This document shows positions 11 to 30,095 of a stretch of DNA of 64,000 nt, piece after piece. Every line of letters starts with the position of its first letter. Position 1 is the stretch's first letter. Location of the stretch: assembly GCA_020059585.1 (NCBI GenBank), contig JAGVBU010000002.1, forward strand, positions 27,566 through 91,565. Direction: 5' to 3'. The notes beneath the pieces were generated by a model, which saw nothing but the letters and a program-made list of their open reading frames with translations, did not search any database and had not been told where the DNA came from. The position numbers and the translations under genes are program-made. This DNA is from Minisyncoccota bacterium (GTDB taxonomy: Bacteria > Patescibacteriota > Minisyncoccia > UBA6257 > GWB1-50-10).

Positions 11-607
11 ATGGCAAAGCGGATATTCGATATCATTCTTTCAGGAATCGGGCTCGTGGTCTTCTCCCCCGTCATTCTCACTATCGCGATTATTATTAAG
101 CGCACGTCTCCGGGACCCGTCTTTTATCGCGGAGAACGGACGGGACTTCACGGAAAATCGTTCCGCATATTCAAATTCAGAAGCATGGTTGTGGATGCGG
201 AAAAAACCGGCGTCCTCTCAACAACAAAAGAAGACGCGCGCGTCACCCCCATCGGGCGATTCGTACGAAAGACGAAACTCGATGAGATTCCGCAACTTAT
301 CAATGTCTTTATCGGCGATATGAGTTTGGTGGGTCCGCGCCCCGAGGTGAAAAAATTCACCGACATGTATACCGAGGATGAAAAGGTGCTTCTTTCAATC
401 CGCCCCGGCATCACCGATTACGCGTCGATCTGGAATTCTGATGAGGCAACGCTTCTCGCGGGAAGTGCCGATCCCGACAAAGATTATCTTGAGAAGATAC
501 GTCCCGAAAAAATCCGCTTACAGCTCAAATATTTTAAAGAACAATCGCTTATCACCGATATGAAAATCTTATTCCTTACTGTGAAAAAACTTGTTTTCAG
601 AACATAA
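11..607 (+). CDS. Small bacterial sugar transferase (PglC/WbaP C-terminal-type polyprenyl-phosphate hexose-1-phosphate transferase).
   Basis: 198 aa with one N-terminal TM helix. Motifs typical of the bacterial sugar-transferase family: RTSPGPVFY, FRIFKFRSM, DEIPQL, VGPRP. Confidence 0.85.
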   Translation: MAKRIFDIILSGIGLVVFSPVILTIAIIIKRTSPGPVFYRGERTGLHGKSFRIFKFRSMVVDAEKTGVLSTTKEDARVTPIGRFVRKTKLDEIPQLINVFIGDMSLVGPRPEVKKFTDMYTEDEKVLLSIRPGITDYASIWNSDEATLLAGSADPDKDYLEKIRPEKIRLQLKYFKEQSLITDMKILFLTVKKLVFRT

Positions 608-1616
608 TATTTTCACGTATAATACATCTGTGAAACACATCTATTCAAAAAAGACCATACAGAGACTCTATGAGACGATGCTCCGCATCCGCCACGTAGA
701 GGAAAGTTTTGTCGAACCCATCCTTTCCGGCACTATCCGCTGTCCCGTTCACCTCTATGTAGGCGAGGAGGGCGTTGCCGCGGGAACGCTCGCGCACACG
801 AATAAAGACGACATCATCTTCGGTACGCACCGCTCGCACGGACACTATCTCGCAAAAGGCGGTGATATGAGGGCGATGGTCGCGGAAATCTACGGCAAGG
901 AAACCGGATGCGCGAAAGGGCGCGGAGGATCCATGCACGTTGTTGACGCGAAAAAAGGAATGCTCGGCGCGGCACCCATTGTCGCGGGGACAGTTTCACT
1001 CGCGGTCGGCGCGGCACTCTCATTTAAAATAAAGAAACAAAAAAATGTCGCGATTGCGTTTTTCGGAGACGGCGCCGTCGGCGAGGGCGTGCTTCACGAG
1101 GCGCTGAACTTTGCGGCACTCAACAAACTCCCTGTTCTTTTCGTCTGCGAGAATAATTATTATTCCACCCATATGCCCCTCCGCGACACGCGCCCCTATG
1201 ACAACATCTTCGAACTCGGCGCGCCGCACAAAATCGCGTATGCCCGCGCGAGCGGAAATGATGTACTCAAAGTGTATGATGTCGCGGGCGATATGATACA
1301 AAAATGCCGTGTGGGACAGGGCCCCGCGTTCATCGAATTTCTCACCTACCGCTATCGCGGACACGTCGGTCCAAACGATAACATTCAGGGGACGCAGACC
1401 GATATCCGCCCAAAGGCAGAGGTTGCGAAATGGAAGAGAAATGATCCCATCAGAAATCTCGAATCATATATCGCACGGAATAAAATTCTTTCCCGAGGGG
1501 AGCAAGATAAAATTTTAAAACGCGTGGGAAAAGAAATACAAAATGCCCATGCTTTTTCCCAAAAAAGTCGTTTCCCCGATCCAAAAACATTATCCGACTA
1601 TGTCTTCAAAAAATAG
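591..1616 (+). CDS. TPP-dependent 2-oxoacid dehydrogenase E1 component, alpha subunit (pyruvate/acetoin dehydrogenase E1-alpha family).
   Basis: N-terminal RLYETMLRIRHVEE. TPP-binding region GDGAVGEGVLHEALNFAAL...LPVLFVCENNYY. YRYRGH motif. Confidence 0.85.
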   Translation: MFSEHNIFTYNTSVKHIYSKKTIQRLYETMLRIRHVEESFVEPILSGTIRCPVHLYVGEEGVAAGTLAHTNKDDIIFGTHRSHGHYLAKGGDMRAMVAEIYGKETGCAKGRGGSMHVVDAKKGMLGAAPIVAGTVSLAVGAALSFKIKKQKNVAIAFFGDGAVGEGVLHEALNFAALNKLPVLFVCENNYYSTHMPLRDTRPYDNIFELGAPHKIAYARASGNDVLKVYDVAGDMIQKCRVGQGPAFIEFLTYRYRGHVGPNDNIQGTQTDIRPKAEVAKWKRNDPIRNLESYIARNKILSRGEQDKILKRVGKEIQNAHAFSQKSRFPDPKTLSDYVFKK

Positions 1617-2604
1617 ACCCTTAGAATACAGTTTGGCGCTCAATGAGGCGATCCATCAAATGATGGCGGAAGATCCCTCCGTGTTCCTCATCGGACAGGG
1701 AGTGAAAAGCCCGTGGTATGTGGGAAACACCGCGACGGGCCTTCTCGACCGCTTCGGCGAAGCGCGCGTCATCGACACTCCCGTCTCGGAAAACGCGGTG
1801 ACTGGAGCGGCGGTCGGCGCCGCAATCGCGGGAATGAAGCCAATTGTGGAACATCCGCGAATGGATTTTATGATGTACGCGCTTGATCCCATCTTAAACG
1901 AGGCGGCAAATTGGTTGTATATGTCGGGCGGGGCGGTGAATGTCCCTCTCGTCATTTGGGGAATCATCAACCGCGGAGGAGAACAGGCGGCGCAGCATTC
2001 TCAGGCGCTCCACGCGCTCTTCGCGCACATCCCCGGACTCAAAGTTGTGATGCCCTCAACCGCGTATGACGCGAAGGGGCTTATGATCGCGGCGATCAAA
2101 GACAAAAACCCCGTGCTTTATATCGATGACCGGTGGCTCTATCGCGTGAAAGGAAATGTTCCGAAGAAAATTTATTCGGTGCCTATCGGGAAGGGCGCGG
2201 TGAGAAAAAAAGGAAAGGATATCACGGTTGTGGGAATTTCCTACGGCGCGCATCAGGCGACACTCGCGTACGATGAACTCCTGAAGAAGGGTATTTCCGC
2301 GGAGATCATTGATCCCCGTACCGTGAAACCCCTCGACATCCCTCTTATTCTTGAATCGGTTAAGAAAACAAAACGGCTCGCCGTCATTGATACCGGATGG
2401 AAAACGGGAGGAATCGCGGGAGAAATCATCGCGTCAATCACGGAGAAGGGATTTCAATATTTGAAACAGGCACCGCTCCGTATCACCCTCCCCGACATTC
2501 CCGCACCGATGGCGAGGACGCTCGAGGAGGAATATTACCGTCCGCTATCAGTCCAATCAATCGTCGCGACAATTGAAACAATGGTTCGAAAAAATAAAAA
2601 ATAA
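1600..2604 (+). CDS. TPP-dependent dehydrogenase E1 component, beta subunit (transketolase-like).
   Basis: ATG at 1600 (MSSKNRPLEY...) overlaps the alpha-subunit stop by 17 nt. E1-beta signatures: IGQGV, DTPVSENAVTGAAVGAA, PLVIWG, and a C-terminal transketolase domain. Confidence 0.85.
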   Translation: MSSKNRPLEYSLALNEAIHQMMAEDPSVFLIGQGVKSPWYVGNTATGLLDRFGEARVIDTPVSENAVTGAAVGAAIAGMKPIVEHPRMDFMMYALDPILNEAANWLYMSGGAVNVPLVIWGIINRGGEQAAQHSQALHALFAHIPGLKVVMPSTAYDAKGLMIAAIKDKNPVLYIDDRWLYRVKGNVPKKIYSVPIGKGAVRKKGKDITVVGISYGAHQATLAYDELLKKGISAEIIDPRTVKPLDIPLILESVKKTKRLAVIDTGWKTGGIAGEIIASITEKGFQYLKQAPLRITLPDIPAPMARTLEEEYYRPLSVQSIVATIETMVRKNKK

Positions 2605-2608
2605 ATAT

Positions 2609-3730
2609 ATGTATAAAGTTCGATTCGTAAATCCGCAAAAACAGTTCGCGGACCACAAGGAAGAATATATGGGGGCAGTCGAGCAGGTCTTTTCGCAGGG
2701 AAATCTCATTATGCGACAGGATCTTAAGGATTTTGAGGAGTCGATTGCAAAATTTGTCGGCGTGAAGCACGCAATCGGCGTGAATTCGGGAACGTCAGCA
2801 ATCTATCTCTCTCTTAAAGCGGCGGGAATCGGCCCCGGCGACGAGGTCATCACGGTCGCGCACACATTTATCGCAAGCATTTCATGCGTCTATCTTGTAG
2901 GCGCCACTCCAGTCCTTGTCGACGTTGGAGAAGATTTCAACATCAATCCCGACCTTATTGAGGCGGCGATCACGCCCAAAACAAAGGCAATCGAGGTGGT
3001 GCACCTCAACGGGCGCATTTGCGACATGGACCGCGTGCAGGATATCGCGAAAAAGCACAACCTCATCATTATTGAGGACGCGGCGCAGGCAATGGGAGCA
3101 ACCTACACAACGAGAGACGGCTCCGTGAAGAAGGCGGGGTCATTCGGGCTTACGGGATGTTTTAGTTTGTATCCCTTCAAGGCGCTCGGCGCGTTCGGAA
3201 ATTCGGGAATTATCACGACAGACGACGATGCCATCGCAAAAAAGCTTATGCTCCTCCGTTACAACGGGGAGGACAGGGAAACGCGCTTTTTCTCCTATCA
3301 CAGCCATAATATGCTTATGGACAACGTGCAGGCGGCACTTTTGAACGTGAAAATGAAATACTTTCCTAAATGGATAGAGCGCCGACGGGAGATTGCGAAT
3401 CTCTATTATGAGGGATTGAAAGACGTGCCTCAGGTGAAACTCCCCCACTTCGACGACAATCGATATTACGATATTTATACGAACTACGCGGTGCGCGCGG
3501 AACGTCGTGATGAATTGAAAAAATATTTTGACGACAATGAGCTTGTCGAGACCATCATTTCGTGGCCAATTCCGATGTACAAGCAGACCGCAATGCTCCC
3601 GAACGACTATTTTCTTCTGGAAACGGAAAAAATCTGCACGGAAATCATCTCGCTCCCGATGTATCCCGAACTCACGAACGAGGACGCGCAAAACGTCATT
3701 GACGCGATAAAAACGTTCTATACAAAATAG
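2609..3730 (+). CDS. DegT/DnrJ/EryC1/StrS-family PLP-dependent sugar aminotransferase (PglE-like).
   Basis: Family-typical blocks: GVNSGTSAIYLSLKAAGIGPGDEVITVAHTFIAS, IIEDAAQAMGA, SFGLTGCFSLYPFKALGAFGNSG. The start could instead be 2573 or 2669. Confidence 0.85.
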   Translation: MYKVRFVNPQKQFADHKEEYMGAVEQVFSQGNLIMRQDLKDFEESIAKFVGVKHAIGVNSGTSAIYLSLKAAGIGPGDEVITVAHTFIASISCVYLVGATPVLVDVGEDFNINPDLIEAAITPKTKAIEVVHLNGRICDMDRVQDIAKKHNLIIIEDAAQAMGATYTTRDGSVKKAGSFGLTGCFSLYPFKALGAFGNSGIITTDDDAIAKKLMLLRYNGEDRETRFFSYHSHNMLMDNVQAALLNVKMKYFPKWIERRREIANLYYEGLKDVPQVKLPHFDDNRYYDIYTNYAVRAERRDELKKYFDDNELVETIISWPIPMYKQTAMLPNDYFLLETEKICTEIISLPMYPELTNEDAQNVIDAIKTFYTK

Positions 3731-3794
3731 GAACTAAAATCTATCCCCCCCACCATTCCATGGAATGGCGGGGGTTTTTGTAAATTCAAAAAAA

Positions 3795-5663
3795 ATGCGA
3801 TATTCTTGGTTTATGCAGACATTCTTGGGTTTTTTGCGGGAGAAAAAAATAATTATATTCGGCATCGCGGATGCCCTTCTTATAGTCATTGGGCTCTTCC
3901 TTTCCTTTCTCGCCCGATTCGACGGTTCTTTTCCTTCAGAATATATCCCATGGTTCCCTTATTACGCGCTCATCCTCGTCGTTTTGAATATCGCATTTCT
4001 CTGGCGCGCGCGTCTCTATGCCTTCACATGGGGATTTGTGGGATTCTCAGAATTCGTAAAGCTCATAAAAGCGACCACCTACGCGCACGCGCTTTTCGCG
4101 ATCTTTGTCTTTATCTACTGGGATAGGCTCGTCTTTCTTTCGGGATTCCCGCGGTCGGTCATCGTCATCAGTTATCTTTTCGATATTATTTTTCTCGGCA
4201 CGCTCCGAATCTCGAAGCGTTTTATTCTTGAATTCATAAGTTCCCGCGCGGCGATGAAACGCGGAGCAGCCACCATCATTGTGGGAGCGGGAACCGAAGG
4301 AGAGCAGATTCTTCGGTTTATGAAGCGCGACGCCTCGTTTAAAATAGTGGGCATTGTCGACAACGACGCGCGGAAGAAGAAATCGCAGATACACGGCGTC
4401 ACCGTACTCGGCGCGATACGAGATATCCCCGCGATTACGGAAAAGTTTTCCGTGACGCGCGCGATTATCGCTATTCCCGCGGGAGACACAGATCTTATTC
4501 GTGACGCGGTGACCCACTCACGCGACGCGGGCATCACCGACATAAAGATCATTCCCACCGCGCATGAACTGCTCACGGGAAAGGTGACGATTGCCGATAT
4601 CCGTGACGTGCGCATTGAGGATCTTTTGGGACGCGCCCCCGCGAAGATAGATACGCATGAAATATCGGACTTTATACGGGGAAAAACGGTGCTCGTGACC
4701 GGCGCCGCGGGCTCTATCGGATCCGAGATCGTGCGGCAGTGCATTGCGTTCGAGCCGAAGAAACTCTATCTTCTTGATTTCAACGAGAGCGGTCTTTTTG
4801 ATCTTGAACAGGAACTCGCGATCGCGGCTCCGCAATCGAAAAAATTCACTCAATCCGTCATCGCGAACATCACGCATAAGGAGAAGATAGACAAGATATT
4901 TCTCGATATGAGACCAAACGTTGTTTTTCACGCGGCGGCATATAAGCATGTGCCTCTTATGGAGGATCATCCGGAGGAAGCGATTCTCACAAACGTCATC
5001 GGGACCATGAATCTTGGGAATGCATCAATCGCGGCGGGAACGGAGAAGTTCGTCATCATTTCTACGGACAAGGCGATACGCCCTCTATCCGTTATGGGAA
5101 AATCAAAACGCGCAGCCGAACTCGTGGGAAAGGCGCTGAATGAGAAAAACGGAACGAAGTTTGTCGCGGTGAGGTTTGGAAACGTCATTGGATCCCGCGG
5201 AAGCGTCATTCCCCTCTTTCAGGAACAGATACGGAAACGATCCCCTATCACCGTCACGCATCCCGATATGACTCGCTATTTTATGACGATTCCCGAAGCG
5301 GCGCTTCTTGTGATGGAGGCTGGCGCGGTGGGAAACGGAGGCGAGGTGTTTATGCTTGATATGGGACAACCCGTGAAAATACTCGATGTCGCGCGAACGC
5401 TTATACGCCTTGCGGGACTCACGCCTGATGTCGATATCCCGATTGTCTTCACCGGCGTTCGTCCGGGAGAGAAGATTGAGGAGATTGTCTTTAGCGAGGA
5501 GGAAAAGCGCGTTGGCACGACGCAGTGGGACAAAATATTCGTCACCAAAAACGAATCAACGTTCGACGCGGAGCGCGTATTAACGCTCACTGAGGCGCTG
5601 CGACACATTATAGAAAAAAACCACGAGGAAACGCGGAAGGATCTTGATGAATTTATTGCGTAG
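3795..5663 (+). CDS. Membrane-anchored polysaccharide biosynthesis protein CapD/PglF/WbpM-type NDP-sugar 4,6-dehydratase.
   Basis: Four N-terminal TM helices. Rossmann motif TGAAGSIGSEI. SDR-type YKHVP. Strong overall similarity to the CapD family. Start is uncertain (3765, 3795 or 3813); the upstream hairpin terminator overlaps 3765. Confidence 0.85.
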   Translation: MRYSWFMQTFLGFLREKKIIIFGIADALLIVIGLFLSFLARFDGSFPSEYIPWFPYYALILVVLNIAFLWRARLYAFTWGFVGFSEFVKLIKATTYAHALFAIFVFIYWDRLVFLSGFPRSVIVISYLFDIIFLGTLRISKRFILEFISSRAAMKRGAATIIVGAGTEGEQILRFMKRDASFKIVGIVDNDARKKKSQIHGVTVLGAIRDIPAITEKFSVTRAIIAIPAGDTDLIRDAVTHSRDAGITDIKIIPTAHELLTGKVTIADIRDVRIEDLLGRAPAKIDTHEISDFIRGKTVLVTGAAGSIGSEIVRQCIAFEPKKLYLLDFNESGLFDLEQELAIAAPQSKKFTQSVIANITHKEKIDKIFLDMRPNVVFHAAAYKHVPLMEDHPEEAILTNVIGTMNLGNASIAAGTEKFVIISTDKAIRPLSVMGKSKRAAELVGKALNEKNGTKFVAVRFGNVIGSRGSVIPLFQEQIRKRSPITVTHPDMTRYFMTIPEAALLVMEAGAVGNGGEVFMLDMGQPVKILDVARTLIRLAGLTPDVDIPIVFTGVRPGEKIEEIVFSEEEKRVGTTQWDKIFVTKNESTFDAERVLTLTEALRHIIEKNHEETRKDLDEFIA

Positions 5664-5708: not shown

Positions 5709-6344
5709 CTAGAAGCGTTTTCGTATGAACGAAACGAGAAGCCACACTGCAACAATGCCGGCGATACCCACGCCCGTATAGAGTCCCACATTGCCTATCG
5801 TTCCCACATAGTCGGCGTATGCCGCGCCGATATACCATCCGAAAAGCGCCATAGAAAGCGCGCGGAAGAAGCCCCCTATGAGCGTGATCACAAGATATCG
5901 CTTGAATTCATAATGAATGAGTCCGCACCCGATCGATATCGCCATATTAGGGAAAAACGGAATCGCGCGGAGCATAAAGATGACAAATTCATCGGTGCCG
6001 CGCGTTGAAAGCTTTTCCCTGAAGCGTTCCACCGACTGCCATGAAACGCCTATGTAGCGCCCCCATTTCTTTATTGCAAGTTCTCCTCCGTGAAAGGCGA
6101 TGAGGTATCCAAAAAGCGATCCAATGGAGAGCCCGAACGCGCCCGGAATCGCGATTGTGAATATCGCGTCAATCGCAACCACACCAAAAGAAGAGGATGC
6201 GGGGAGCATAAAAAAACCGGCGGCGAGGAAGGGCAGGGAGGATGGAATGGGAATCGCAATTTCTTCGATTATCGAGAGAAAAAAGATGCCGATTGCTCCA
6301 TATTGCTCCACGAATGGTGTTATTGTATGTAATATTTCAGACAC
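5709..6344 (-). CDS. DedA/SNARE-associated (VTT-domain) family membrane protein.
   Basis: 211 aa, multi-pass. DedA-type blocks: GIFFLSIIEEIAIPIPSS, FHGGELAIKKWGRY. Confidence 0.7.
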   Translation of the reverse strand: MSEILHTITPFVEQYGAIGIFFLSIIEEIAIPIPSSLPFLAAGFFMLPASSSFGVVAIDAIFTIAIPGAFGLSIGSLFGYLIAFHGGELAIKKWGRYIGVSWQSVERFREKLSTRGTDEFVIFMLRAIPFFPNMAISIGCGLIHYEFKRYLVITLIGGFFRALSMALFGWYIGAAYADYVGTIGNVGLYTGVGIAGIVAVWLLVSFIRKRF

Positions 6345-6367: not shown

Positions 6368-6751
6368 TTATGCGGACTGTGTAGTATATATAAACCTTTT
6401 GATTTCAAGCTTCTTTTGGGAAAAATTTATAAGAAATCCAAGAGTGTATTTTGATCCTTTTAGATATCCGAAGAACTGTTTTTTATCTTCCCTCGTGATG
6501 TATGGCTTCGATTTAAGCTCAATTAAGATAGAATCGTCTACTACTAAGTCGGGAATATACACGCCAATTTTTTCTTCTTTGTAAAAAATATTTATTCTTT
6601 CTTGTGTTGAAACTTTTAAGTTTCTTAATTCTAATTCTTTCTTGAGTGCATTTTCAATCGTCTTTTCCCGAATGCCTCCGCCTATTTTATTAAATACCTC
6701 AAAACACGCGCCCCTTATTTCATATGACTCTTTTTCGAATAGAAGTGTCAT
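6368..6751 (-). CDS. GxxExxY protein (PD-(D/E)XK nuclease-fold family).
   Basis: 127 aa. Contains SYEIRGACFEV, then DLVVDDSILIELK and the family-typical KSKPYITREDKKQ...YL. Confidence 0.75.
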   Translation of the reverse strand: MTLLFEKESYEIRGACFEVFNKIGGGIREKTIENALKKELELRNLKVSTQERINIFYKEEKIGVYIPDLVVDDSILIELKSKPYITREDKKQFFGYLKGSKYTLGFLINFSQKKLEIKRFIYTTQSA

Positions 6752-6858: not shown

Positions 6859-9800
6859 TTAGTAAGAGAGAGTCGCGCCGTCAACCGGGTATGAATCTGA
6901 AGCAGAGTTGCTTCCGAATTCCGTACCTGTGGTTGCCTGCGTGTAGCGATACACTACGCCACCGGTGTTCCAGTAGTATTCTGGTCCGGTTGAGCCATCG
7001 GTCGAAAGGTATCCTTTCGTGCCGTCAACCTTGAGCGAAAGTGTCGTGTTCGTGGTTCCCGCATTCGAGACCGCAGACTCGATGTTCGAGGTGTCGGCCT
7101 TCACGGTGTAAGTCTTTGAAGAGTTTGCACCGATTTCCTGCGTTACCCACGCGCCTGACGTTGACGCAAAGGTGACAGTCGCCGTTGAGGATGCCGTCAC
7201 ACCGTATCCGTAGATCGTCGTCGCCGCTGACGTTGCAACCAACTGGTCTGCTTCGTCATAGAGGCGGAAGTTCGTTACGGAGCTCGATGAACTCGGGCTA
7301 AGGCTCAAGCTCGCTACGACCGCGAAGGACTCAAGCGTAAGCGTGCGTCCTCCTGCCGGAGCGGAGTTTGCGATTGTGAATTTACCCACTACGTCCGTTG
7401 ACTGTCCGATCTTTCCGGTCGCGTTTGAAAGCGCGTTCGTAATGGTCGGCGCCGCGTCATGGAAGAGGAAGTAGTTCGAGGTTGAGCTCGAAGTTACCGT
7501 GATGCTTCCCTCAGCCAACTGGCCTTGTGAAGAATATACTTCCATATCGTCCGTTGATGAGCTGTTCACCATGACCGCCACTACCGACGTCGGTTCGAGA
7601 ATTCCCGATCCGCTTACGTCAGCCTTGAGGGTCAAGACCTTCTGCTGGCTCTGCGGCAAGGTGACATACTTTGACGAGTCGAGTGCAAAGAGCACTTTTC
7701 CGGTCACCGAGTTCACGCTTGCTGACTGGAGCAACGTTGATCCGTCATAGAGATACACCATCGCAAAGTTCGGCGCGGTTGACGTTGCCGTCTTCCATGT
7801 CGAGCTCGCTGACAAGAGCTGAAGCGTGATTTTTCTCAATTCGAGATCCTCGTTCGATGCTTCAAGACGAATCTTGTTCAATTCAACACCGGTCTGTCCC
7901 GCGAGCACTATCTTTGAGGTCGGCTTCGAAGAGTCGGCCGCAATCGTGAGGCTCGGAGCCTTTACGGTGATTGATTGAAGCGCAAGTGCCGCTGACGGCG
8001 TGGATTCAAGTGACTTCGATGAAGACACTCCGTATCCACTCACGCCCGCTGACGCAACGCTCGCATAGAACGAATCGTTTTCGGTCGCTGAGGAGAGCAC
8101 ATCCGCGTAGAGCGAGAGTACTTTCGACTGCGACTTCGCGATCGTCAGGTTTAACGTGAAGCTGTTCGAGCTCGCCGAAGGCGTGCCGATGGTCGATCCG
8201 AGCTGAGTCGCACCGTCCATAAGCTTCATGTTCTGGATGTATGAGCTTGACGCAACATCAAAGCTGATGGTGTTCACTCTCACATCATCCGCTGACGAGG
8301 CCTGAAGAACGAATTCTCCAATCTTGACGTTCGTCGCGCTCTTTGCACGGTTCGTATTCGCGAACGCGGCATTCTTCGTGACGGTCAAGGTTACATCGCC
8401 AACCGTGATCTGATTTCCCGAATAGACACTGTCCGCGAGATAGGTGAAGTCATTCGTCGAGTAACGCTTCGTGTAGAAACGACCAACCTTTGCGGTATAG
8501 TCGTCCGTTGACGCCGCGCTTGACGAGATGGTTCCCGTTACCTCGATGGTCTTCGTCGCACCCGCTTCAACATTGATGTATGAAGAGAGGTTGTGAAGAT
8601 ACGTGTCCAACGTTGATGTCGTCACTGATGACGTTGCCTGAAGTCCGGTCGTGTCTGCTGAGATTGACAAGTAGGTTTCCCCAGTCGTCGCATCTTTTAC
8701 GTTCACGGTTCCGGTGAGTGCCTTTGCTCCGCTCGTGGTGTCATAGCTGATCTGAAGACCAATTTTGCGGATCTCAAGCTTCTCTCCTGCTGACTTCAAG
8801 TCGAATTTCGCAAGCACCACATTCTGTGAAGAGGGCGCTACGCTTCCGCTCGGGCTTCCTGCCGCCTTTGAGATGGTAAGAAGTCCTGACTTTACCTTGA
8901 AGTAGCCATTCGTGTTCTGCGTGTCCGACTGCGTGAGTTCGTTTCCAGACGAATCTTTCGGCTGGATCGCGCCTCCCGTCGTGACACCCTTCACGACCAC
9001 ATCGTAGTCGTTCTGGATTGACAAACGCGTGTAGTATCCGGATCCATCAACCACGTCCGCCTTGACCGTGAGGGTCTTTGAGAGTCCCTTGTCGATCGTG
9101 TACGGGGTGGTGAGAACGAAGGTCACATAGCGATCCACCGATTTCTCAGTGGTTGCCAACACGTTTCCTTCCGGCGAATACAATTTCCAATTCTTGAAGT
9201 CGGTGTCCCGAATCGTTCCCTCCGCATAGAGAGTGATCTTTTCGAGTCTGATCGCTTCCTTGGAATTGTTCTGGTTCAACTGGACCTTGAATATTTCGCG
9301 GTCAGTCTGGCCAACTTCGATGTTTCCGTCACCAGTCGTCACAGAAAGACCTGAGACGGCCTGGTCATCGATGCGCACATCTCCGAGCGATGCGCTTCCG
9401 TCAACAAGCGTGAACGTGGTGCCTGATACGGGGAAATTTCCCTGTACCGGAACGCTGTTCGACACCGTGACATCCGACGCCGACGCAACGGAGAAGTTCA
9501 CTGTTCCGCTCGTCACCGCCGAGTCAATGTTGATTGCAACATAGACATTCTTTGACTGTCCGGCACCAAGAACGATCGGTGATCCACTAAACGAGATCAA
9601 CGCCTTTCCGTCCGCCGTCAAAGCCGTGATGATGTTCCCATAGCGGGTTCCCGCATCATCCCAGAGGCTCACGCCAGTGATCTTGGTGTTCGCGACATAG
9701 CCGCCACGGGTTACCGTGACGCCCGTCACTGTTGCACCATCCTTCCCTGCCGTAAGTTTGAGCGTCAACACTTTGTTGTAAAGTGATCCGCTCGGGAGAC

Positions 9801-10317
9801 TTGCCGCCGACTGAAGCGCCGCCTCAACTTTGAGGAACGATTCCGTCGGGACAACTACTACACCACCCCCCGTTGAAGTTCCGCCTCCCATGGAAGCGAT
9901 TTTCGCTCGGGTGATGGGTCCAAAGTAACCGGACGCCGGAGAAACTCCGTTTGCCGCCTGCCACTTTGCAAGTGCAGCCTTCGTCGCAGGTCCGAAATAT
10001 GATGACTCATTTCCCGGTGATCCCGCGCCCGACGCGCTGACCTGAGCGCCATTTGCATTCAAGAACTGCTGGAGGGCCTTCACTTCCGCACCTGTTGACC
10101 CAAGAGTGAGGTTCTGGGTAAACGCGTACGAAGTACTCACACTGCCGGTTCCTCCCTGCTGTGCCTGAAGCTGCGCTACTAATGCCGTTAATTGGGCAAT
10201 CTGCGCTAACAAAGCATTGATATCAACGCTCTGCGCTTGTGTGTTCGGAACAGCCATCGTCACAGCAACAACTGCTGCGAGTCCAACTGTTACGATTTTT
10301 TTCATTAATCTACTCAT
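6859..10317 (-). CDS. Large (1152 aa) secreted cell-surface protein. Signal peptide, coiled-coil linker, peptidoglycan-binding domain (PG_binding_1-like), then a long Ser/Thr-rich beta-rich region.
   Basis: N-terminal MSRLMKKIVTVGLAAVVAVTMAVPNTQAQS. Peptidoglycan-binding repeat block LTLGSTGAEVKALQQFL...YFGPATKAALAKWQAANGV...GYFGPITRAKI. A strong hairpin terminator at 6815-6845 follows the stop. Confidence 0.8.
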   Translation of the reverse strand: MSRLMKKIVTVGLAAVVAVTMAVPNTQAQSVDINALLAQIAQLTALVAQLQAQQGGTGSVSTSYAFTQNLTLGSTGAEVKALQQFLNANGAQVSASGAGSPGNESSYFGPATKAALAKWQAANGVSPASGYFGPITRAKIASMGGGTSTGGGVVVVPTESFLKVEAALQSAASLPSGSLYNKVLTLKLTAGKDGATVTGVTVTRGGYVANTKITGVSLWDDAGTRYGNIITALTADGKALISFSGSPIVLGAGQSKNVYVAINIDSAVTSGTVNFSVASASDVTVSNSVPVQGNFPVSGTTFTLVDGSASLGDVRIDDQAVSGLSVTTGDGNIEVGQTDREIFKVQLNQNNSKEAIRLEKITLYAEGTIRDTDFKNWKLYSPEGNVLATTEKSVDRYVTFVLTTPYTIDKGLSKTLTVKADVVDGSGYYTRLSIQNDYDVVVKGVTTGGAIQPKDSSGNELTQSDTQNTNGYFKVKSGLLTISKAAGSPSGSVAPSSQNVVLAKFDLKSAGEKLEIRKIGLQISYDTTSGAKALTGTVNVKDATTGETYLSISADTTGLQATSSVTTSTLDTYLHNLSSYINVEAGATKTIEVTGTISSSAASTDDYTAKVGRFYTKRYSTNDFTYLADSVYSGNQITVGDVTLTVTKNAAFANTNRAKSATNVKIGEFVLQASSADDVRVNTISFDVASSSYIQNMKLMDGATQLGSTIGTPSASSNSFTLNLTIAKSQSKVLSLYADVLSSATENDSFYASVASAGVSGYGVSSSKSLESTPSAALALQSITVKAPSLTIAADSSKPTSKIVLAGQTGVELNKIRLEASNEDLELRKITLQLLSASSTWKTATSTAPNFAMVYLYDGSTLLQSASVNSVTGKVLFALDSSKYVTLPQSQQKVLTLKADVSGSGILEPTSVVAVMVNSSSTDDMEVYSSQGQLAEGSITVTSSSTSNYFLFHDAAPTITNALSNATGKIGQSTDVVGKFTIANSAPAGGRTLTLESFAVVASLSLSPSSSSSVTNFRLYDEADQLVATSAATTIYGYGVTASSTATVTFASTSGAWVTQEIGANSSKTYTVKADTSNIESAVSNAGTTNTTLSLKVDGTKGYLSTDGSTGPEYYWNTGGVVYRYTQATTGTEFGSNSASDSYPVDGATLSY

Positions 10318-23822: not shown

Positions 23823-23895
23823 GGGTGCCTAACGGGAATTGAACCCGTGTCATCCGCTCCACAGGCGGATGCTCTACCATTGAGCTATAGGCACC
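23823..23895 (-). tRNA. tRNA-His (anticodon GUG).
   Basis: Hand-folded cloverleaf. Anticodon loop CTGTGGA. Encoded extra 5' G(-1) pairing with discriminator C73, the tRNA-His identity element. T-arm ACGGG-TTCAATT-CCCGT. No encoded CCA. Confidence 0.85.
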
Positions 23896-23898
23896 ATA

Positions 23899-24384
23899 TT
23901 ACAAATCCTCTCCAAAATGATGGACGAGGATATGGCAATTATGGCATAGCCATACAAGATTCTCAACCTTATTATTTTTTCGATTATTATCTTTATGATG
24001 AACGGCTAAAATCCTCTTATCAGACACTTTACACAGCACGCATACCATTGGAATATTGTGCCTCTTTATTACATTTCTATAGGCATATTCTCCCGTCTTC
24101 CAGTTTGAATGTTTCTTTCCAACAAATTCCCCATTCCTCCACCTCGTTTGACATGATTTACTGCAAAAATATTTTTTACTTTTCGAATGTTGTAGCGCTC
24201 GTTGAGTTTTATATATTTCTTTCTTACAAACAGAACACTTCACAAAATTTCCATTTTTCTGTGCTTCGTGCTGGCATTTTCTAGAACAATATTTCCCAAA
24301 ACCTCTTTTCAACCAAAACGGTTTTGCATAAAATTCTTTTTTACAAATTCTACATAAAACGTCCGGCATATGTTCATAATACAA
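23899..24384 (-). CDS. HNH endonuclease with N-terminal zinc ribbons (homing-endonuclease-like).
   Basis: Three CxxC..C pairs, then the HNH core HHKDNNRKNNKVENLVWLCHNCH. The gene is AT-rich. Its stop codon lies 3 nt upstream of tRNA-His. Confidence 0.8.
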   Translation of the reverse strand: MYYEHMPDVLCRICKKEFYAKPFWLKRGFGKYCSRKCQHEAQKNGNFVKCSVCKKEIYKTQRALQHSKSKKYFCSKSCQTRWRNGEFVGKKHSNWKTGEYAYRNVIKRHNIPMVCVLCKVSDKRILAVHHKDNNRKNNKVENLVWLCHNCHILVHHFGEDL

Positions 24385-24500
24385 AAAAATACCCCATAGT
24401 AAAATGGGTTGTCTGTGGATGAAATGCTTTATACGATTAAACCTTTTCCAATTTTCAAATAAAATCGAGAATTCGAAACATACAAAGAATACCCCGATTG

Positions 24501-24911
24501 CTATTCTTCTTCAATATCAGAGGATTTTCCTTCCCTTCTGGATTTCTTCTTCTGATAACGGAGATGGTTGTGTCTCACTTCCCGCTCCTTCACGCTGTTC
24601 CGCTTTCTTGTCGGAATGCGTGGCGGATCTTTATGGAGCGCTTCCTTGATAAGCTCATTCAATTTTTCAATCACACGCTCCTTATTCCGCTCTTGAAACC
24701 GCTCCTCCTCGCTCTCCACAAGAAGCTCGTCATCCTGATCAATGCGGTTCGAAAGTTTTTCCCGTATTCTTTTCTTCTCTTCTTCCGAAAACGGCAACGC
24801 CTCTATTTTCACCTGCGCCTGCACTTTCGTCGCTCGTTTATTGACCCTCTGACCTCCCGGACCGCTTGATCGCGCCGTTTTAAAGCGAATATATTTCTCA
24901 TCAATCGCCAT
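24501..24911 (-). CDS. arfB: Alternative ribosome-rescue factor ArfB (peptidyl-tRNA hydrolase, class-I release-factor GGQ domain).
   Basis: 136 aa. GGQ motif SSGPGGQRVNK, then a basic C-terminal tail. Confidence 0.85.
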   Translation of the reverse strand: MAIDEKYIRFKTARSSGPGGQRVNKRATKVQAQVKIEALPFSEEEKKRIREKLSNRIDQDDELLVESEEERFQERNKERVIEKLNELIKEALHKDPPRIPTRKRNSVKEREVRHNHLRYQKKKSRREGKSSDIEEE

Positions 24912-24952
24912 ATTTCTTGTTTCTCACGAAAATTATACGGTATAATGAAGCA

Positions 24953-25612
24953 ATGGACAATTTGCTGGAGCATGTGGGAAATTGGATCCTCCAAAACCCC
25001 TCATGGACCGACCTGATCCTCGCCGCGGGTATCATTATTCAAGGAGAACTCACCATTCTCCTTTCTGTCTACCTCGCCATAAATGACAATATCGGATGGG
25101 ATCAGTTTGTTATTGTGACTCTTGGCACGCTCGTCATCGGCGAGACATTCGTCTACATTGTGGGAAGAACACTTCGCAATACGAGATTCGGGTGGAAACT
25201 CTATAAGAAAAACAAATCAAACAGAAAAATACAGGCATATACGCACTATCTCAAGAAAAACACGGGGAAACTTCTGATACTCGCCAAATTCCTCCCCGCC
25301 ACGAATCTCATCATTCTTATCCTTATCGGTTGGTCCCGAACGAAATTTATGACATTTTTCAAGACGTATCTCCCCGCGGTGCTTCTCTGGTTTTCTAGCA
25401 TGACGGTCGTCGCGTATTTTCTCATGTCGGGTCTTCATTACCTCCGATCGACAAAGGTATTCCGGCAGGTGGAAATAGGCATTGTCGTGATATTCGTGCT
25501 TATATTCCTTGGAGAACATATTCTGCGACGGGCTATAGGGAAACGAACACCACTTACGGAACGAGACGATGAGGAAGAGGAAGAATGTGAAAATAAAAAC
25601 CCCTCCGCATAG
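24953..25612 (+). CDS. DedA-family-like membrane protein.
   Basis: Multi-pass. KFLPATN-type motif. The start is uncertain (24917 or 24953). Confidence 0.5.
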   Translation: MDNLLEHVGNWILQNPSWTDLILAAGIIIQGELTILLSVYLAINDNIGWDQFVIVTLGTLVIGETFVYIVGRTLRNTRFGWKLYKKNKSNRKIQAYTHYLKKNTGKLLILAKFLPATNLIILILIGWSRTKFMTFFKTYLPAVLLWFSSMTVVAYFLMSGLHYLRSTKVFRQVEIGIVVIFVLIFLGEHILRRAIGKRTPLTERDDEEEEECENKNPSA

Positions 25613-25617
25613 GGGGG

Positions 25618-26409
25618 TTATTTTTTTGAAATCTCCTTCGCGTATTTCAAAACATTTTTCGCATACGTTCTGCTGTTATTATATTTCATAAGCGACGCTA
25701 TCGGATCTTTTTGATTCCATCCCGTAGTGTGAAGATAATGCGCGATGCTCCATACCGTATCAGTGAAATTCCGAAGAATATCTGCATTCCCGTCTCCATC
25801 GCCATCGATTGCAAAAGAGAATGAGGAAGGCATGAACTGAGGAAGTCCCACCGCACCCGCCCATGAGGTCGGAATAGAAAACGGATCGAGCATTCGGGCT
25901 TCGCACACTATACATATTTTCTTGAATTCACTCGCAAGATATCGTTTTCTCTTTTCGCTTTTCGCAACGGAAAAGAGGGTGAAATACGTATTCGGAGCCT
26001 TATGTGTTCCGAGAAAAAGACCAAGATCGGATTCGACTCGAAATACCGCAACGATAACATCCGCGGGAATCCCAAATTTCTTTGACGCGTCTTGTACGGG
26101 AATATAAGATTTGAGAAAACTCCTTCCGCGTGCCACAGACTCTTCCGTAAAAAGAAAACTATAATCCGGCTTTGTCCTGCGCTTCAGAATTCCAAGAATC
26201 GAGGAGTCGATTCCAAATCGCGGATCATTTGTGATGGAATGCACGGCAGAATCCGACACTCCCGCGCGGGAGAGAAATTTCCCGAACGAAACCTTCTTGT
26301 CGTTCGCCTGTCCGCATATACACACGGAAAAGAACATAAGAAAAATCAATACGACCGCGTATCGCATACTCGGCTCCTTTGTGGTTAATTTTCTGTTTTC
26401 AGCGTACAC
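25618..26409 (-). CDS. Lytic murein transglycosylase (MltB-like).
   Basis: Signal/TM N-terminus. MltB-like blocks: FRVESDLGLF, AGAVGLPQFMPSSF, DGDGDGNADI. Confidence 0.75.
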   Translation of the reverse strand: MYAENRKLTTKEPSMRYAVVLIFLMFFSVCICGQANDKKVSFGKFLSRAGVSDSAVHSITNDPRFGIDSSILGILKRRTKPDYSFLFTEESVARGRSFLKSYIPVQDASKKFGIPADVIVAVFRVESDLGLFLGTHKAPNTYFTLFSVAKSEKRKRYLASEFKKICIVCEARMLDPFSIPTSWAGAVGLPQFMPSSFSFAIDGDGDGNADILRNFTDTVWSIAHYLHTTGWNQKDPIASLMKYNNSRTYAKNVLKYAKEISKK

Positions 26410-26434
26410 CGAAAAACACTCCCCTGTAAAATCC

Positions 26435-26767
26435 TCAACTCTTCATCGCGTTTATCTTCGCCGCCATAATAAAATCATTTTCCGAGAGTCCTCCAATCGC
26501 ATGGGTTGAGAGCTCTATAATCACGTTTTTGTACGAGACAAGATGAATATCGGGGTGGTGTCCCTCTTCTTCCGCAATTTTCCCCACGGCGTTTACAAAC
26601 GAGAGTGCCGCGGCAAAATCAGAATTTTCAAATGTATGTATTATCTTCTTTCCGTCATCACTCATCTCCCACCCAAGCACTCCCGCGAGATATTTCTGCG
26701 ATTCCTCTTTCGTCATGGGCTTTGCTCCCCCCTCACATGGCACGCATTTTTTATTTAATAGATCCAT
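26435..26767 (-). CDS. Pterin-4a-carbinolamine dehydratase (PCD/DCoH).
   Basis: Start at MDLLNKK. Active-site block EEGHHPDI. About 110 aa. Confidence 0.85.
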   Translation of the reverse strand: MDLLNKKCVPCEGGAKPMTKEESQKYLAGVLGWEMSDDGKKIIHTFENSDFAAALSFVNAVGKIAEEEGHHPDIHLVSYKNVIIELSTHAIGGLSENDFIMAAKINAMKS

Positions 26768-26856
26768 GGGGTAAGTATACGGTAGTAAGTAGTAAGTAGT
26801 AAGGGTTCGATTCACCCTCGTCCCGATTTTCATCGGGACTCCTCTGCGGAAATAAG

Positions 26857-26888
26857 AATCCCGCCAGTCTATAGACTGGCGGGATGAT
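26857..26888 (-). terminator. Hairpin terminator copy downstream of a degenerate tRNA-Phe 3' fragment. It is the same 24-nt stem-loop as the tRNA-Arg terminator at 28587-28610.
   Basis: cccgccagtctatagactggcggg is a perfect palindrome, followed on the minus strand by a U-rich tract. Confidence 0.6.
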
Positions 26889-27066
26889 GGTGCCGCGGGG
26901 GTGAGATCGCCCTCGACTCAAAAGAGTGCCGTCGCACTCTTTTGGTCTGGGCACCGGCTCGCGGTGCATTCTGCTGAATGCACATCGCTCCGCCGTTCGA
27001 TTCACCACGCAACGCACGCAGGTGCGTTGCTCCCGCATAAAAACCCCTGAAGGGGTTTTTATTTTG
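26889..27066 (-). repeat. Palindrome-rich element of about 175 bp. It begins with a 15-nt copy of the tRNA-Phe 3' end and is related to the repeats downstream of tRNA-Arg.
   Basis: gtgccgcgggggtga is present at 26890 and at 27066. Shares the ctgggcaccgSctcgcgKtgcat motif and the gcattctgctgaatgca palindrome with the 28069-28618 units. Confidence 0.65.
27039..27065 (-). terminator. Rho-independent terminator immediately downstream of tRNA-Phe.
   Basis: aaaaacccctgaaggggtttttatttt. Confidence 0.7.
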
Positions 27067-27138
27067 TGCCGCGGGGGTGAATCGAACACCCGACACGACG
27101 CTCTTCAGGCGACTGCTCTACCACTGAGCTACCGCGGC
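27067..27138 (-). tRNA. tRNA-Phe (anticodon GAA).
   Basis: Hand-folded cloverleaf. Acceptor GCCGCGG/CCGCGGC. D-arm GCTC-AGTGGTA-GAGC. Anticodon loop CTGAAGA, with one U·U mismatch in the anticodon stem. T-arm GGGTG-TTCGATT-CACCC. Discriminator A. No encoded CCA. Confidence 0.8.
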
Positions 27139-27291
27139 GAATGGTGAGGAAAAGAATATATGTAATATATTGTTTTCGAACCGTGATGCCGAGGAATATT
27201 GCGTAAAACGCGCACCCCGCGACATCTCTGTCATAACGAAGAATATCACACGAAAAATACTTTTTCAATTTGGGTCGACACATTTATTTGC

Positions 27292-28068
27292 ATGGAATAC
27301 AATAATACCAACACAAAAAATATACCTATGCTCATCAACATTCTCACCGCAAGCATCATTGGAAGTGTCCTCGCTCTCGCGGGAGGGCTTCTTCTCCTCT
27401 GGAAAGAAAAATATATCCGAAACGCATCGCTTCTTCTTGTAAGTTTTGCCGCGGGAAGCCTTCTCGGCGCGGCGTTTTTTGATCTGCTTCCTGAAGCAAT
27501 TCACGAAGGAGGCGATCCCGCGGGAATATTCTCATTCGTACTCGGGGGAATTCTCGTGCTTTTTCTCTTTGAAAAACTCCTTAAATGGTATCATTGTCAC
27601 AATAAAGGCGTCTGCGAATACCACACCTTTTCAAGCGCGGTGCTTTTCGGTGATACCGTACACAATTTCATCGATGGAATCATCATCGCCCTCAGTTTCG
27701 GGCTTGGTGTGGAAATAGGCATCGCAACCACTATCGCGGTATTTCTCCATGAAATTCCTCAGGAGATAGGAGACTTTGGAGTGCTCCTCCACGCGGGATG
27801 GGAAAAGAAAAAAATCATTCTCGTGAATCTCGGCACCGCACTCGCCACCATCCTTGGAGGAATCCTCGGATATATCGCGCTTCCCTACGTATCTTCATTT
27901 CTTCCTCACCTCATAGGATTCGCCGCGGGAACATTTATCTATATCGCCGTGTCCGATCTTATGCCGGAACTCCGCCACGAGTCGAAACCGAAAGAGTTCG
28001 CTCATTTTTTCACCATTCTTCTCGGAATTCTCACTATTGTCGCCATCGGATCTTTCTTTGATCATTAA
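27292..28068 (+). CDS. zupT: ZIP-family zinc transporter (ZupT-like).
   Basis: 8 TM segments. ZIP signature HNFIDG...HEIPQEIGDF. His-rich loop WYHCHNKGVCEYH. The start could instead be 27328. Confidence 0.85.
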   Translation: MEYNNTNTKNIPMLINILTASIIGSVLALAGGLLLLWKEKYIRNASLLLVSFAAGSLLGAAFFDLLPEAIHEGGDPAGIFSFVLGGILVLFLFEKLLKWYHCHNKGVCEYHTFSSAVLFGDTVHNFIDGIIIALSFGLGVEIGIATTIAVFLHEIPQEIGDFGVLLHAGWEKKKIILVNLGTALATILGGILGYIALPYVSSFLPHLIGFAAGTFIYIAVSDLMPELRHESKPKEFAHFFTILLGILTIVAIGSFFDH

Positions 28069-28690: not shown

Positions 28691-28733
28691 GTATTTCCAC
28701 GCTAAAGAAACTCGCGTGGAAAGTCAAAAAACA

Positions 28734-30090: not shown

Positions 30091-30095
30091 GGTTC

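Follow-up and report, generated by a model that had tools for sequence, protein, structure and literature searches.

The genes of the locus

The window, meaning the whole 64-kb stretch of DNA analyzed here, is best read as opening within the 3′ portion of an operon for a cell-surface glycan. Its host belongs to the Patescibacteria (CPR): the named relatives of the ClpB encoded in the window are Patescibacteria, with 67-71% identity. As the earlier note had described, five co-directional genes lie on the + strand, and all have strong family matches. They encode a PglC-like small monotopic phosphoglycosyltransferase (11-607; 198 aa; PF02397 Bac_transf, E 1e-61), an E1 alpha-like ThDP-binding subunit (630-1616; 328 aa; PF00676, E 7e-63), an E1 beta-like subunit (1600-2604; 334 aa; PF02779 and PF02780), a DegT/DnrJ/EryC1-family PLP aminotransferase (2609-3730; 373 aa; PF01041, E 8e-101) and a membrane-anchored PglF/CapD-like UDP-HexNAc 4,6-dehydratase (3765-5663; 632 aa; PF02719, E 2e-108, with CoA_binding_3). 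The alpha ORF is open from TTG 591, and translation probably begins at GTG 630, for a product of 328 aa that matches the gene calls of relatives. The reported 17-nt alpha/beta overlap is exact, with the beta ATG at 1600 and the alpha TAG at 1614-1616; four bases lie between the beta stop and the probable DegT start at ATG 2609. The PglF-like ORF runs from 3765, and gene calls in relatives begin at Met 3813.

The PglC-like protein has C. jejuni PglC (8g1n, 90 bits) and WbaP among its closest PDB matches, and its translation shows the DE dyad (KLDEIP) and a PRP motif; it is predicted to put the finished UDP-sugar onto undecaprenyl phosphate. For the PglF-like dehydratase the best PDB match is C. 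jejuni PglF/WlaL (5bju, 284 bits), and its translation carries an STDK catalytic motif and four hydrophobic N-terminal segments. By its sequence, this enzyme would be the source of a 4-keto acceptor. Convergent with the operon is a DedA/VTT-family membrane protein gene (5709-6344, - strand; PF09335), syntenic in the related loci L001, L002, L003 and L083. It may encode a polyprenyl-phosphate transporter (the match to UptA models is weak, 34 bits against a cutoff of 250), and its link to the cassette is weak.

The aminotransferase carries the PLP lysine motif SLYPFKALG. Its PDB neighbors are 7b0d (286 bits), QdtB (240), WlaRG (235), DesV (233) and WbpE (212), followed by perosamine synthase, a C4 enzyme (193), PseC (114) and PglE (104); the nearest solved relatives act on nucleotide-sugar ring C3 or C4 ketones, not on exocyclic ketones. 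The earlier description of a PglE-like aminotransferase thus holds for the DegT family and fails for close homology to PglE, and the "bacillosamine-type" label on the pathway is not borne out, the protein being nearer to QdtB, DesV and WbpE than to PglE or PseC.

The cluster was also said to lack an acyltransferase. This was borne out: positions 11-5663 encode no acyltransferase, whether of the hexapeptide type or any other, and in L001, a relative at 98% identity, the 9 kb upstream that carry Pfam annotation are likewise free of them. Routes ending at a free 4-amino sugar (AATGal-type) require no acetyltransferase, which makes the position of the E1 pair "where the acetyltransferase is expected" a weak argument; the absent acetyltransferase by itself proves nothing.

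An E1 pair with neither E2 nor E3 nearby

The best curated matches of the pair are PDH E1 alpha and beta models. E1 alpha scores 299 against an NCBIfam PDH E1 alpha cutoff of 393.85, and E1 beta scores 320.1 against NF006667, less than 1 bit short of the cutoff of 321. In E1 alpha the ThDP/Mg motif GDG...NN and the counterpart of H263 in human E1a are conserved, the catalytic His245 being retained; E1 beta shows no variation at its catalytic Glu64 and His133, which correspond to E59 and H128 of the G. stearothermophilus protein. The loops beside both catalytic histidines carry clade-specific changes, new Arg/His residues included. Clade-specific residues of E1 alpha are P39 and G247-P248, the latter directly after His245; H85, R87, R125 and R178 of E1 beta are specific to the E2-less clade. 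The site of beta K289, which aligns with G. stearothermophilus E285, is D/E in 35/37 E2-linked proteins and K/R in 62/86 E2-less ones. The pair has thus kept its catalytic machinery in altered surroundings. Homologues of E1 alpha at about 60% identity and about 327 aa number in the thousands.

We compared 166 related loci, graded by the identity of their E1 alpha to that of the window, and searched for E2 by tblastn with two Pfam-verified E2 proteins as queries. E2 adjoins E1 alpha/beta in 37 distant loci. None was found in the 64-kb window, in the 21 loci (L001-L018, L083-L085) whose E1 alpha shares 53% identity or more with that of the window or, with the same queries, in L087-L166. Neither E2 nor E3 is present in any of the 116 loci of E2-less clusters, and the E3 redox-disulfide motif is confined to E2-linked loci. 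The earlier note had proposed looking upstream for these partners: in the syntenic L001 (98%), L002 and L083, which extend upstream of the cassette, there are glycosyltransferases, methyltransferases and aminotransferases and no E2/E3, so that this check is negative there as in the whole window.

The cassette is conserved across phyla

Where E1 alpha is at least 52% identical and enough flank is available, PglC lies directly upstream of E1 alpha in 22/22 loci and E2 is found in 0/21; DegT is present in 19/21 loci of this identity, and a PglF homologue in 17 of the 21 with at least 6 kb of downstream flank. At 30-42% identity, E2 is found in 29/46. The order PglC-E1a-E1b-DegT/AKR-PglF, in which AKR stands for an aldo-keto reductase, is conserved in Bacteroidales, Syntrophales, Nitrospirales, Acidobacteriota, Gammaproteobacteria, Uhrbacteria and others, and an operon with an E1 pair devoid of E2/E3 recurs across many bacterial phyla. 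UPGMA on corrected distances, which is not a supported phylogeny, sets the E2-less sugar-context clusters apart from the E2-linked ones. E1ab-DegT pairs also occur without PglC or PglF, as in an Azospirillum plasmid locus with cytidylyltransferase and HAD genes.

Every PglC-linked locus with full flanks (n = 28) encodes a ketone-processing partner: 23 have DegT only, four an AKR only, one both and none neither. The two are negatively associated (Fisher p = 2.4e-4, a value that overstates the support because the loci are not phylogenetically independent). The order is PglC-AKR-E1a-E1b-PglF in L085, L122, L139 and L163, and in L085, the sole Pfam-annotated AKR-only locus, no other candidate sugar-modifying enzyme lies near the cassette. 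Of the DegT-bearing loci in this set, 15/24 also encode a class I amino-acid aminotransferase, as against 0/4 AKR-only loci. Its closest counterparts are the aromatic and aspartate aminotransferases of Pyrococcus, and by synteny with L001-L003 it should sit just upstream of the window edge.

A predicted route to a branched sugar

By analogy with the alpha-KADH2 enzymes, the most likely role of the E1 pair is to attach a carbon branch to a keto-sugar, a role that the earlier note had raised and that the absence of E2/E3 and the conserved neighborhood strongly favor. These E1-like heterodimers take two carbons from pyruvate and attach them as a branch to C3 or C4 of NDP-keto-sugars, KbDH-alpha/beta couples pyruvate with ketones in vitro, and the branch ketone is afterwards reduced (by the AKR Pau7) or transaminated, as in kibdelomycin (PMC12247030, PMC4753412, PMC4802897, PMC9306805, PMC10055692). 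Members are AviB1/AviB2 (avilamycin), Pau11/Pau12 = Plm8/Plm9 (paulomycin), AlmDI/DII (aldgamycin) and KbDH-alpha/beta (kibdelomycin) (PMC12247030, PMC4753412, PMC4802897).

We infer the chemistry of each step from gene families and from these precedents, and consider the route as a whole to be, on balance, probable. The PglF-like enzyme, as a family member, would convert UDP-HexNAc to UDP-4-keto-6-deoxy-HexNAc. E1 alpha/beta alone would then act as a ThDP carboligase, decarboxylating a 2-oxo acid, most likely pyruvate, and adding the acyl-anion equivalent to the C4 carbonyl, as proposed from AviB1/B2, Pau11/12 (Plm8/9), AlmDI/DII and KbDH-alpha/beta; the product would be a tertiary alcohol with an acetyl branch. 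DegT is predicted to aminate the ketone of this new branch, giving a 1-aminoethyl group like that on amycolose, the kibdelomycin sugar, the competing role being amination at C4 of the PglF product. In sister operons an AKR in place of DegT would give a 1-hydroxyethyl branch, as with Pau7 in paulomycin. The PglC-like transferase would finally load the sugar-1-phosphate onto the lipid carrier, undecaprenyl phosphate, as the first sugar of the glycan. Speculatively, the class I aminotransferase could recycle the amino donor or provide the 2-oxo acid, and its presence hints that the donor may not be pyruvate. If the E1 pair does add a branch, the first sugar in the surface glycans of these bacteria is probably one that has yet to be described.

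Alternative roles for the E1 pair

A more classical assignment would have DegT, or the AKR of sister operons, act on C4 of UDP-4-keto-6-deoxy-HexNAc to give a 4-amino (AATGal/Bac2Ac4N-like) or 4-hydroxy sugar, with E1ab supplying something else, such as an acyl or hydroxyalkyl substituent on N or O of that sugar. C4 amination or reduction is classical chemistry, the PglF-like and PglC-like genes fit their families well, the DegT family characteristically aminates ring ketones (perosamine synthase included), a free 4-amine would need no acetyltransferase, and the DegT-or-AKR pattern fits equally well if it is the C4 ketone of the PglF product that must be disposed of. We nevertheless hold this assignment to be unlikely. 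It leaves E1ab without a chemically plausible role: acyl donors for an amide or ester cannot be produced by an E1 that lacks a lipoyl-E2 or another oxidant, the cassette has no conserved acyl carrier or transferase, and E1 N-acylation without an oxidant is chemically unlikely, which also disfavors the N-acylated sugar offered as an option in the earlier note. DegT is a poor match to PglE and PseC, and the known 4-ketoreductases of PglF-type 4-keto-sugar pathways are SDRs, which counts against an AKR acting at C4. Finally, in AKR-only loci such as L085, E1ab must use the 4-keto sugar for all enzymes to have a role, and there is a direct precedent for an AKR that reduces the branch ketone alongside an E1 pair (PMC4753412).

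The pairing of the class I aminotransferase with DegT (absent from AKR-only loci) and the E1ab-DegT pairs of the Azospirillum type would also suit a pathway in which these enzymes make a non-sugar amine (amino acid to 2-oxo acid to aldehyde to amine) that decorates the glycan, PglF and PglC making an ordinary sugar. E1-type enzymes do not usually release free aldehyde, however, AKR-type operons without both aminotransferases still keep E1ab, PglF and PglC, a transferase for such a substituent is not conserved, and the constant adjacency of PglC to E1 alpha argues for the PglC-transferred sugar as the target of E1ab; we regard such a pathway as quite improbable. Hardly credible is an E1 that serves an ordinary dehydrogenase for pyruvate, acetoin or branched-chain 2-oxo acids and merely lies beside sugar genes. 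The PDH models as best matches, with beta so close to its cutoff, and the full set of catalytic residues agree with it, but the alpha subunit is well under PDH cutoffs, the E285-equivalent position differs between E2-linked and E2-less E1 beta, E2 follows E1ab in most distant loci, and the lack of E2/E3 in the window, in syntenic relatives and in the E2-less clusters, together with the same sugar-gene neighborhood in unrelated phyla, effectively refute the adjacent catabolic dehydrogenase that the earlier note had kept as its alternative.

Relation to known systems

Like the window pair, alpha-KADH2 enzymes are two-subunit, PDH-E1-like and encoded without E2 or E3, with an NDP-sugar 4,6-dehydratase adjoining and then a ketone-tailoring enzyme (AKR or transaminase). 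This three-part logic is matched, in gene content, by the window operon and its sister operons. The alpha-KADH2 enzymes use dTDP-deoxyhexoses, feed antibiotic-decorating glycosyltransferases and belong to actinomycetes, whereas the scaffold here would be a UDP-HexNAc-derived sugar from a membrane-anchored PglF-type enzyme, bound for a PglC-type lipid-carrier transferase and a surface glycan, in Patescibacteria and many Gram-negative or anaerobic phyla.

YerE/ErwE of yersiniose and erwiniose share with our proposal a ThDP acyl-anion addition to the C4 ketone of a nucleotide 4-keto-6-deoxy sugar, subsequent ketoreduction and a surface polysaccharide as destination (PMC9306805, PMC4753412). YerE is a single-chain flavoprotein of the ALS/decarboxylase type whose substrates are CDP-3,6-dideoxy-4-keto sugars, unlike the E1 alpha/beta heterodimer of the window, and the yersiniose-type chemistry invoked earlier is therefore a poorer precedent than the heterodimeric alpha-KADH2 (PMC12247030, PMC4753412, PMC4802897).

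The Campylobacter Pgl system (UDP-diNAcBac) likewise combines a PglF-like dehydratase, a small PglC-type transferase and a DegT-family aminotransferase in one operon; here PglD is absent, the aminotransferase is no more than a distant relative of PglE (104 bits), and the E1 pair is inserted and conserved. The window pair has the same fold as PdhAB/AcoAB, with the same ThDP motif and catalytic Glu and His residues, and its alpha subunit is about 35-42% identical to E2-linked E1 alpha proteins. It differs from them in its lack of E2/E3, its sugar-gene neighbors, its remodeled catalytic-His loops and a charge reversal at a conserved acidic position of E1 beta.

The sugar operon and its products

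Five co-directional genes had been read between 11 and 5663 in the earlier note, and all five hold, with unambiguous family matches. The part of the operon in the window, on the forward strand, opens with a 198-aa PglC-like small phosphoglycosyltransferase (11-607; PF02397, E 1e-61) and continues with the ThDP-binding alpha and beta subunits of a pyruvate dehydrogenase E1-like enzyme (together E1ab), a DegT aminotransferase (2609-3730; PF01041, E 8e-101) and a 632-aa PglF/CapD-like dehydratase (3765-5663; PF02719, E 2e-108). The E1 alpha ORF runs from 591 to 1616 (PF00676, E 7e-63); its probable start is the GTG at 630, and the resulting protein of 328 aa agrees in length with the gene calls of relatives. 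E1 beta (1600-2604; PF02779 and PF02780) overlaps E1 alpha by exactly the 17 nt first read, and four bases separate it from the DegT gene. A promoter and terminator scan, with consensus-level matches only, gave no convincing terminator within the operon. A promoter-like TTCAGA-16-TATAAT element, likewise only a consensus match, lies in the end of the PglC gene (596-623, forward strand) and stops 7 nt ahead of the E1 alpha GTG.

In the PglC-like protein, PF02397 covers the full length and the match to PglC (8g1n) reaches 90 bits, which points to the small monotopic type. The closest solved structure to the dehydratase is Campylobacter jejuni PglF (5bju, 284 bits), and the protein carries an STDK motif, N-terminal hydrophobic segments and a CoA_binding_3 linker. 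The DegT protein retains its PLP lysine (SLYPFKALG) and is thus a transaminase rather than a dehydratase; a PMP-dependent dehydratase was rejected on this ground. Among solved structures it scores highest against 7b0d (286 bits), QdtB (240), WlaRG (235), DesV (233) and WbpE (212), with PseC at 114 bits and PglE at 104 bits, so that the DegT family assignment stands while the name "PglE homologue", used for this protein at first reading, is too strong. The absence of an acyltransferase from 11-5663 was borne out: we found no PglD-type N-acetyltransferase there, nor across the 9 kb that precede the operon in L001, a 98%-identical relative.

No E2 or E3 genes beside the E1 pair

The window begins at the PglC gene, and the upstream context was taken from close relatives; the exact PglC sequence of the window is not on record, and close homologues (P0001, P0003 and P0004) were used for this purpose. 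The same five-gene block occurs in four related loci, L001 (E1 alpha 98% identical), L002 (83%), L003 (88%) and L083 (69%), followed in each by a convergent DedA gene and a large PG-binding surface protein. Upstream lie glycosyltransferases, methyltransferases and a class I/II aminotransferase. The earlier note had proposed looking upstream for the lipoyl acyltransferase (E2) and E3 partners of a 2-oxo acid dehydrogenase complex; neither is present there in any of the four loci, which favours a sugar-modifying role. The 64-kb window, the part of this genome that the analysis covered, likewise holds no E2 match and no E3 redox motif.

We extended the comparison to 166 loci with related genes, drawn from collections of genomes and metagenomes, searching them for homologues of the window proteins and with two Pfam-verified E2 proteins; the denominators below are the loci whose flanks suffice for the feature in question. 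When E1 alpha identity to the window is at least 52%, PglC lies upstream in 22/22 loci, DegT is present in 19/21, PglF in 17/21 and E2 in 0/21. At 30-42% identity, E2 is present in 29 of 46 loci, and the counts for PglC, DegT and PglF are not informative. Hosts include Bacteroidales, Syntrophales, Nitrospirales, Acidobacteriota, Gammaproteobacteria, Melioribacteraceae and Uhrbacteria. We grouped 159 E1 alpha sequences by UPGMA on Kimura-corrected distances, which yields clusters but does not have the standing of a supported phylogeny; three E2-less clusters in sugar contexts (116 sequences) separate from E2-linked clusters (43 sequences). No locus of the E2-less clusters gave an E2 match or an E3 motif; the E2 search did recover E2 in 37 distant loci, a positive control, and the E3 redox motif is confined to E2-linked loci. 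Given this conserved, E2-less sugar-gene context, a catabolic E1 that is adjacent by chance is essentially excluded.

The E2-less clusters also extend to other glycan contexts, including E1ab followed by DegT (Azospirillum, Xanthobacteraceae), an SDR dehydratase-like gene followed by E1ab and two DegT genes, and neighbourhoods with radical-SAM genes and GT2 glycosyltransferases. SDR dehydratase-like genes lie immediately 5' of E1ab in cluster-3 loci. A search of a plasmid collection with E1 alpha gave no match above 47% identity; it returned one annotated Azospirillum locus with the order oxidoreductase-E1a-E1b-DegT. Radical-SAM/SPASM and GT2 genes, and not PglC or PglF, neighbour the pair in L143 (1534-2601 and 5416-6519), L027 (6916-7980) and L021 (6910-7977), which suggests another, different use of the E1 alpha/beta pair.

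Catalytic and clade-specific residues of E1ab

The two subunits are separate proteins by Pfam, E1 alpha carrying E1_dh and E1 beta carrying Transket_pyr and Transketolase_C; TPP_enzyme_C matches E1 alpha weakly (27 bits). The ThDP/Mg motif (GDG...NN) is intact, and the catalytic residues are conserved: His245 of E1 alpha (human H263), and Glu64 and His133 of E1 beta (E59 and H128 of Geobacillus stearothermophilus). As the E1 of a dehydrogenase complex (PDH, acetoin or BCKDH), the pair falls short both in E2/E3 partners, absent from the 64 kb covered, and in its scores against curated models, E1 alpha reaching 299.1 against the NCBIfam equivalog threshold of 393.85 (TIGR03182) and E1 beta 320.1 against 321 (NF006667) and 308.5 against 454 (NF008854).

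The E2-less clusters share a signature of their own. In E1 alpha, Pro39 replaces Phe, and Gly247-Pro248 stand right behind the catalytic His; in E1 beta, His85, Arg87, Arg125 and Arg178 are each 88-100% conserved, and Arg125 precedes the catalytic His by 8 residues, Gln129 by 4. Position 289 of E1 beta is mostly Lys or Arg in the E2-less clusters and Asp or Glu in 35/37 E2-linked proteins. It aligns with E285 of G. stearothermophilus, which we take to be a contact residue for the E2 binding domain. From these residues we infer a remodelled second-substrate site, which may now accept an anionic nucleotide sugar, and a loss of E2 docking.

DegT and aldo-keto reductase as alternating partners

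The PglC-linked cluster shows two recurrent architectures: PglC-E1a-E1b-DegT-(class I aminotransferase)-PglF, and PglC-AKR-E1a-E1b-PglF, in which an aldo-keto reductase (AKR) is present and no aminotransferase (L085, L122, L132, L139 and L163). Both partners are found together in L084 and L111. In the 28 PglC-linked loci whose flanks suffice, DegT occurs alone in 23, AKR alone in four and the two together in one, and no locus lacks both (Fisher p = 2.4e-4, for loci that are not independent). DegT or AKR is thus present in 28/28, a pattern that is silent on whether a branch ketone or C4 is the target.

The class I aminotransferase is nearest to aromatic and aspartate aminotransferases of the archaeon Pyrococcus and is present only alongside DegT (L001 7059-8327; L008 3121-4359; L009 11152-12312). 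By synteny with L001-L003, such a gene should lie just past the 5' edge of the window, and it may serve in 2-oxo acid supply or amino-donor recycling. A small ORF between E1b and this gene in L008 and L017 was considered as an acyl carrier protein and proved to be HicB-like instead.

Comparison with known sugar-branching enzymes

The arrangement is reminiscent of the alpha-KADH2 heterodimers of actinomycetes, PDH-E1-like pairs that place a pyruvate-derived two-carbon acetyl branch onto C3 or C4 of an NDP-keto-sugar (PMC12247030 section 2.2, PMC4753412, PMC4802897, PMC10055692). Examples are AviB1/B2, Pau11/12 (= Plm8/9), the aldgamycin enzymes and KbDH-alpha/beta, pyruvate-ketone coupling having been shown in vitro for KbDH; the branch ketone is reduced by the aldo-keto reductase Pau7 in the paulomycin pathway and transaminated in that of kibdelomycin, giving amycolose with its 1-aminoalkyl branch (PMC12247030, PMC4753412, PMC4802897, PMC10055692). 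Like these enzymes, E1ab of the window consists of two subunits in which the ThDP/Mg motif and the catalytic Glu and His are preserved, has no lipoyl-E2 or E3 gene to go with it in the 64 kb covered, and shares its operon with a nucleotide-sugar 4,6-dehydratase (PglF-like). By gene content, a dehydratase, E1ab and then a candidate reductase or transaminase of the branch ketone would follow the same logic. Unlike the antibiotic pathways, the operon uses PglF and PglC in an undecaprenyl-phosphate-linked, UDP-HexNAc framework. It shares the membrane-anchored, retaining PglF-type 4,6-dehydratase and the small PglC-type transferase with the Pgl pathway to UDP-diNAcBac, but no gene for a PglD-type N-acetyltransferase lies in 11-5663.

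The heterodimeric carboligases of the alpha-KADH2 type described to date come from ~120 secondary-metabolite clusters (PMC12247030), and for LPS sugars the single-chain YerE/ErwE type alone is described (PMC9306805, PMC4753412). The latter are ALS/decarboxylase-type ThDP (flavo)enzymes, unlike the E1 alpha plus E1 beta seen here. In the searchable literature, excluding the 2024 survey of the ~120 clusters, we found neither this cassette nor any E1 pair described from the gene clusters for O-antigens, capsules or Pgl-type glycans.

Proposed pathway and alternatives

From the gene families and their conserved context we infer the following chemistry. PglF would make UDP-4-keto-6-deoxy-HexNAc; E1ab would decarboxylate pyruvate or another 2-oxo acid and add the acyl anion at C4; DegT would aminate the new side-chain ketone, which AKR would reduce in the sister operons; and PglC would move the sugar phosphate onto the lipid carrier. 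On balance we lean towards C4 acylation by E1ab, ahead of DegT or AKR, as the most likely mechanism. More tentatively, the cassette PglC-E1a-E1b-(DegT or AKR)-PglF could specify an undescribed family of C4-branched 6-deoxy-HexNAc sugars, serving as lipid-linked priming sugars of surface glycans in Patescibacteria and many other largely uncultured phyla. On that reading the product of the window operon would be UDP-2-acetamido-2,6-dideoxy-4-C-(1-aminoethyl)-hexose, and that of AKR-type operons the 1-hydroxyethyl analogue.

The main rival has DegT or AKR work on C4 itself, by the classical route. The regiochemistry of DegT is not readable from its sequence, and the alternation of the two enzymes fits either target; the classical route, however, leaves E1ab with no chemically workable role in the absence of an oxidant or carrier, and we regard it as unlikely. 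Use of E1ab as an acetyl source for N-acetylation was rejected for want of an oxidant, E2 or carrier, and a transketolase-like cleavage of the 4-keto sugar because it would destroy the ring. A route in which a small amine becomes the substituent appears improbable, as it leaves the AKR-only operons unexplained.

If C4 acylation by E1ab is correct, the surface glycans of bacteria of the candidate phyla radiation (CPR), Syntrophales, Nitrospirales, Bacteroidales and others would carry C-branched HexNAc-derived sugars at their reducing end; to our knowledge, no glycan structures are available for most of these organisms. PDH-E1-type carboligases, until now tied to actinomycete antibiotics, would then be widespread in cell-envelope glycan synthesis, extending heterodimeric alpha-KADH2 enzymes to primary envelope biosynthesis and to UDP-sugar substrates. 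The E1 homologues number thousands and would offer a rich natural set of ThDP biocatalysts that accept ketones. The same reading would correct a systematic mis-annotation, these genes being routinely called pyruvate or acetoin dehydrogenase E1, a label that can mislead metabolic reconstruction of CPR genomes.

Host assignment and neighbouring genes

Rfam and tRNA scans found no rRNA in the window, and taxonomy was therefore taken from the relatives of its ClpB, of which all those named are Patescibacteria (67-71% identity). Six tRNA genes (His, Phe, Arg, two Met and Asp) lie within ~7 kb at 23823-31185.

Convergent with the operon is a DedA/VTT-family membrane protein (5709-6344, reverse strand), syntenic in close relatives, whose match to models of the undecaprenyl-phosphate transporter UptA is weak, at 34 bits where the cutoff is 250. 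Further on, a secreted protein of 1152 aa (6859-10317, reverse strand) carries a hydrophobic segment at its N terminus and a PG_binding_1 domain, past which ~1000 residues are rich in Ser, Thr and Val and give no Pfam match. It may be the surface protein that is glycosylated, as it is kept beside the sugar operon in L001, L002, L003 and L083 too.

In L009 (4395-6008) and L012 (3424-5016), a 537-aa fusion of a WbpB-like GFO/IDH/MocA oxidoreductase and a WbpD-like hexapeptide acetyltransferase sits upstream of the cassette; the two functions are separate genes in L002. Small GxxExxY/PDDEXK_3, 23S_rRNA_IVP and HicB-like genes are scattered in or beside the cassettes (window 6368-6751, reverse strand; L084 10039-10398; L001 376-636; L008 2614-2889; L017 9994-10269). 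They look like small selfish insertions, and in L084 one stands between E1 alpha and E1 beta.
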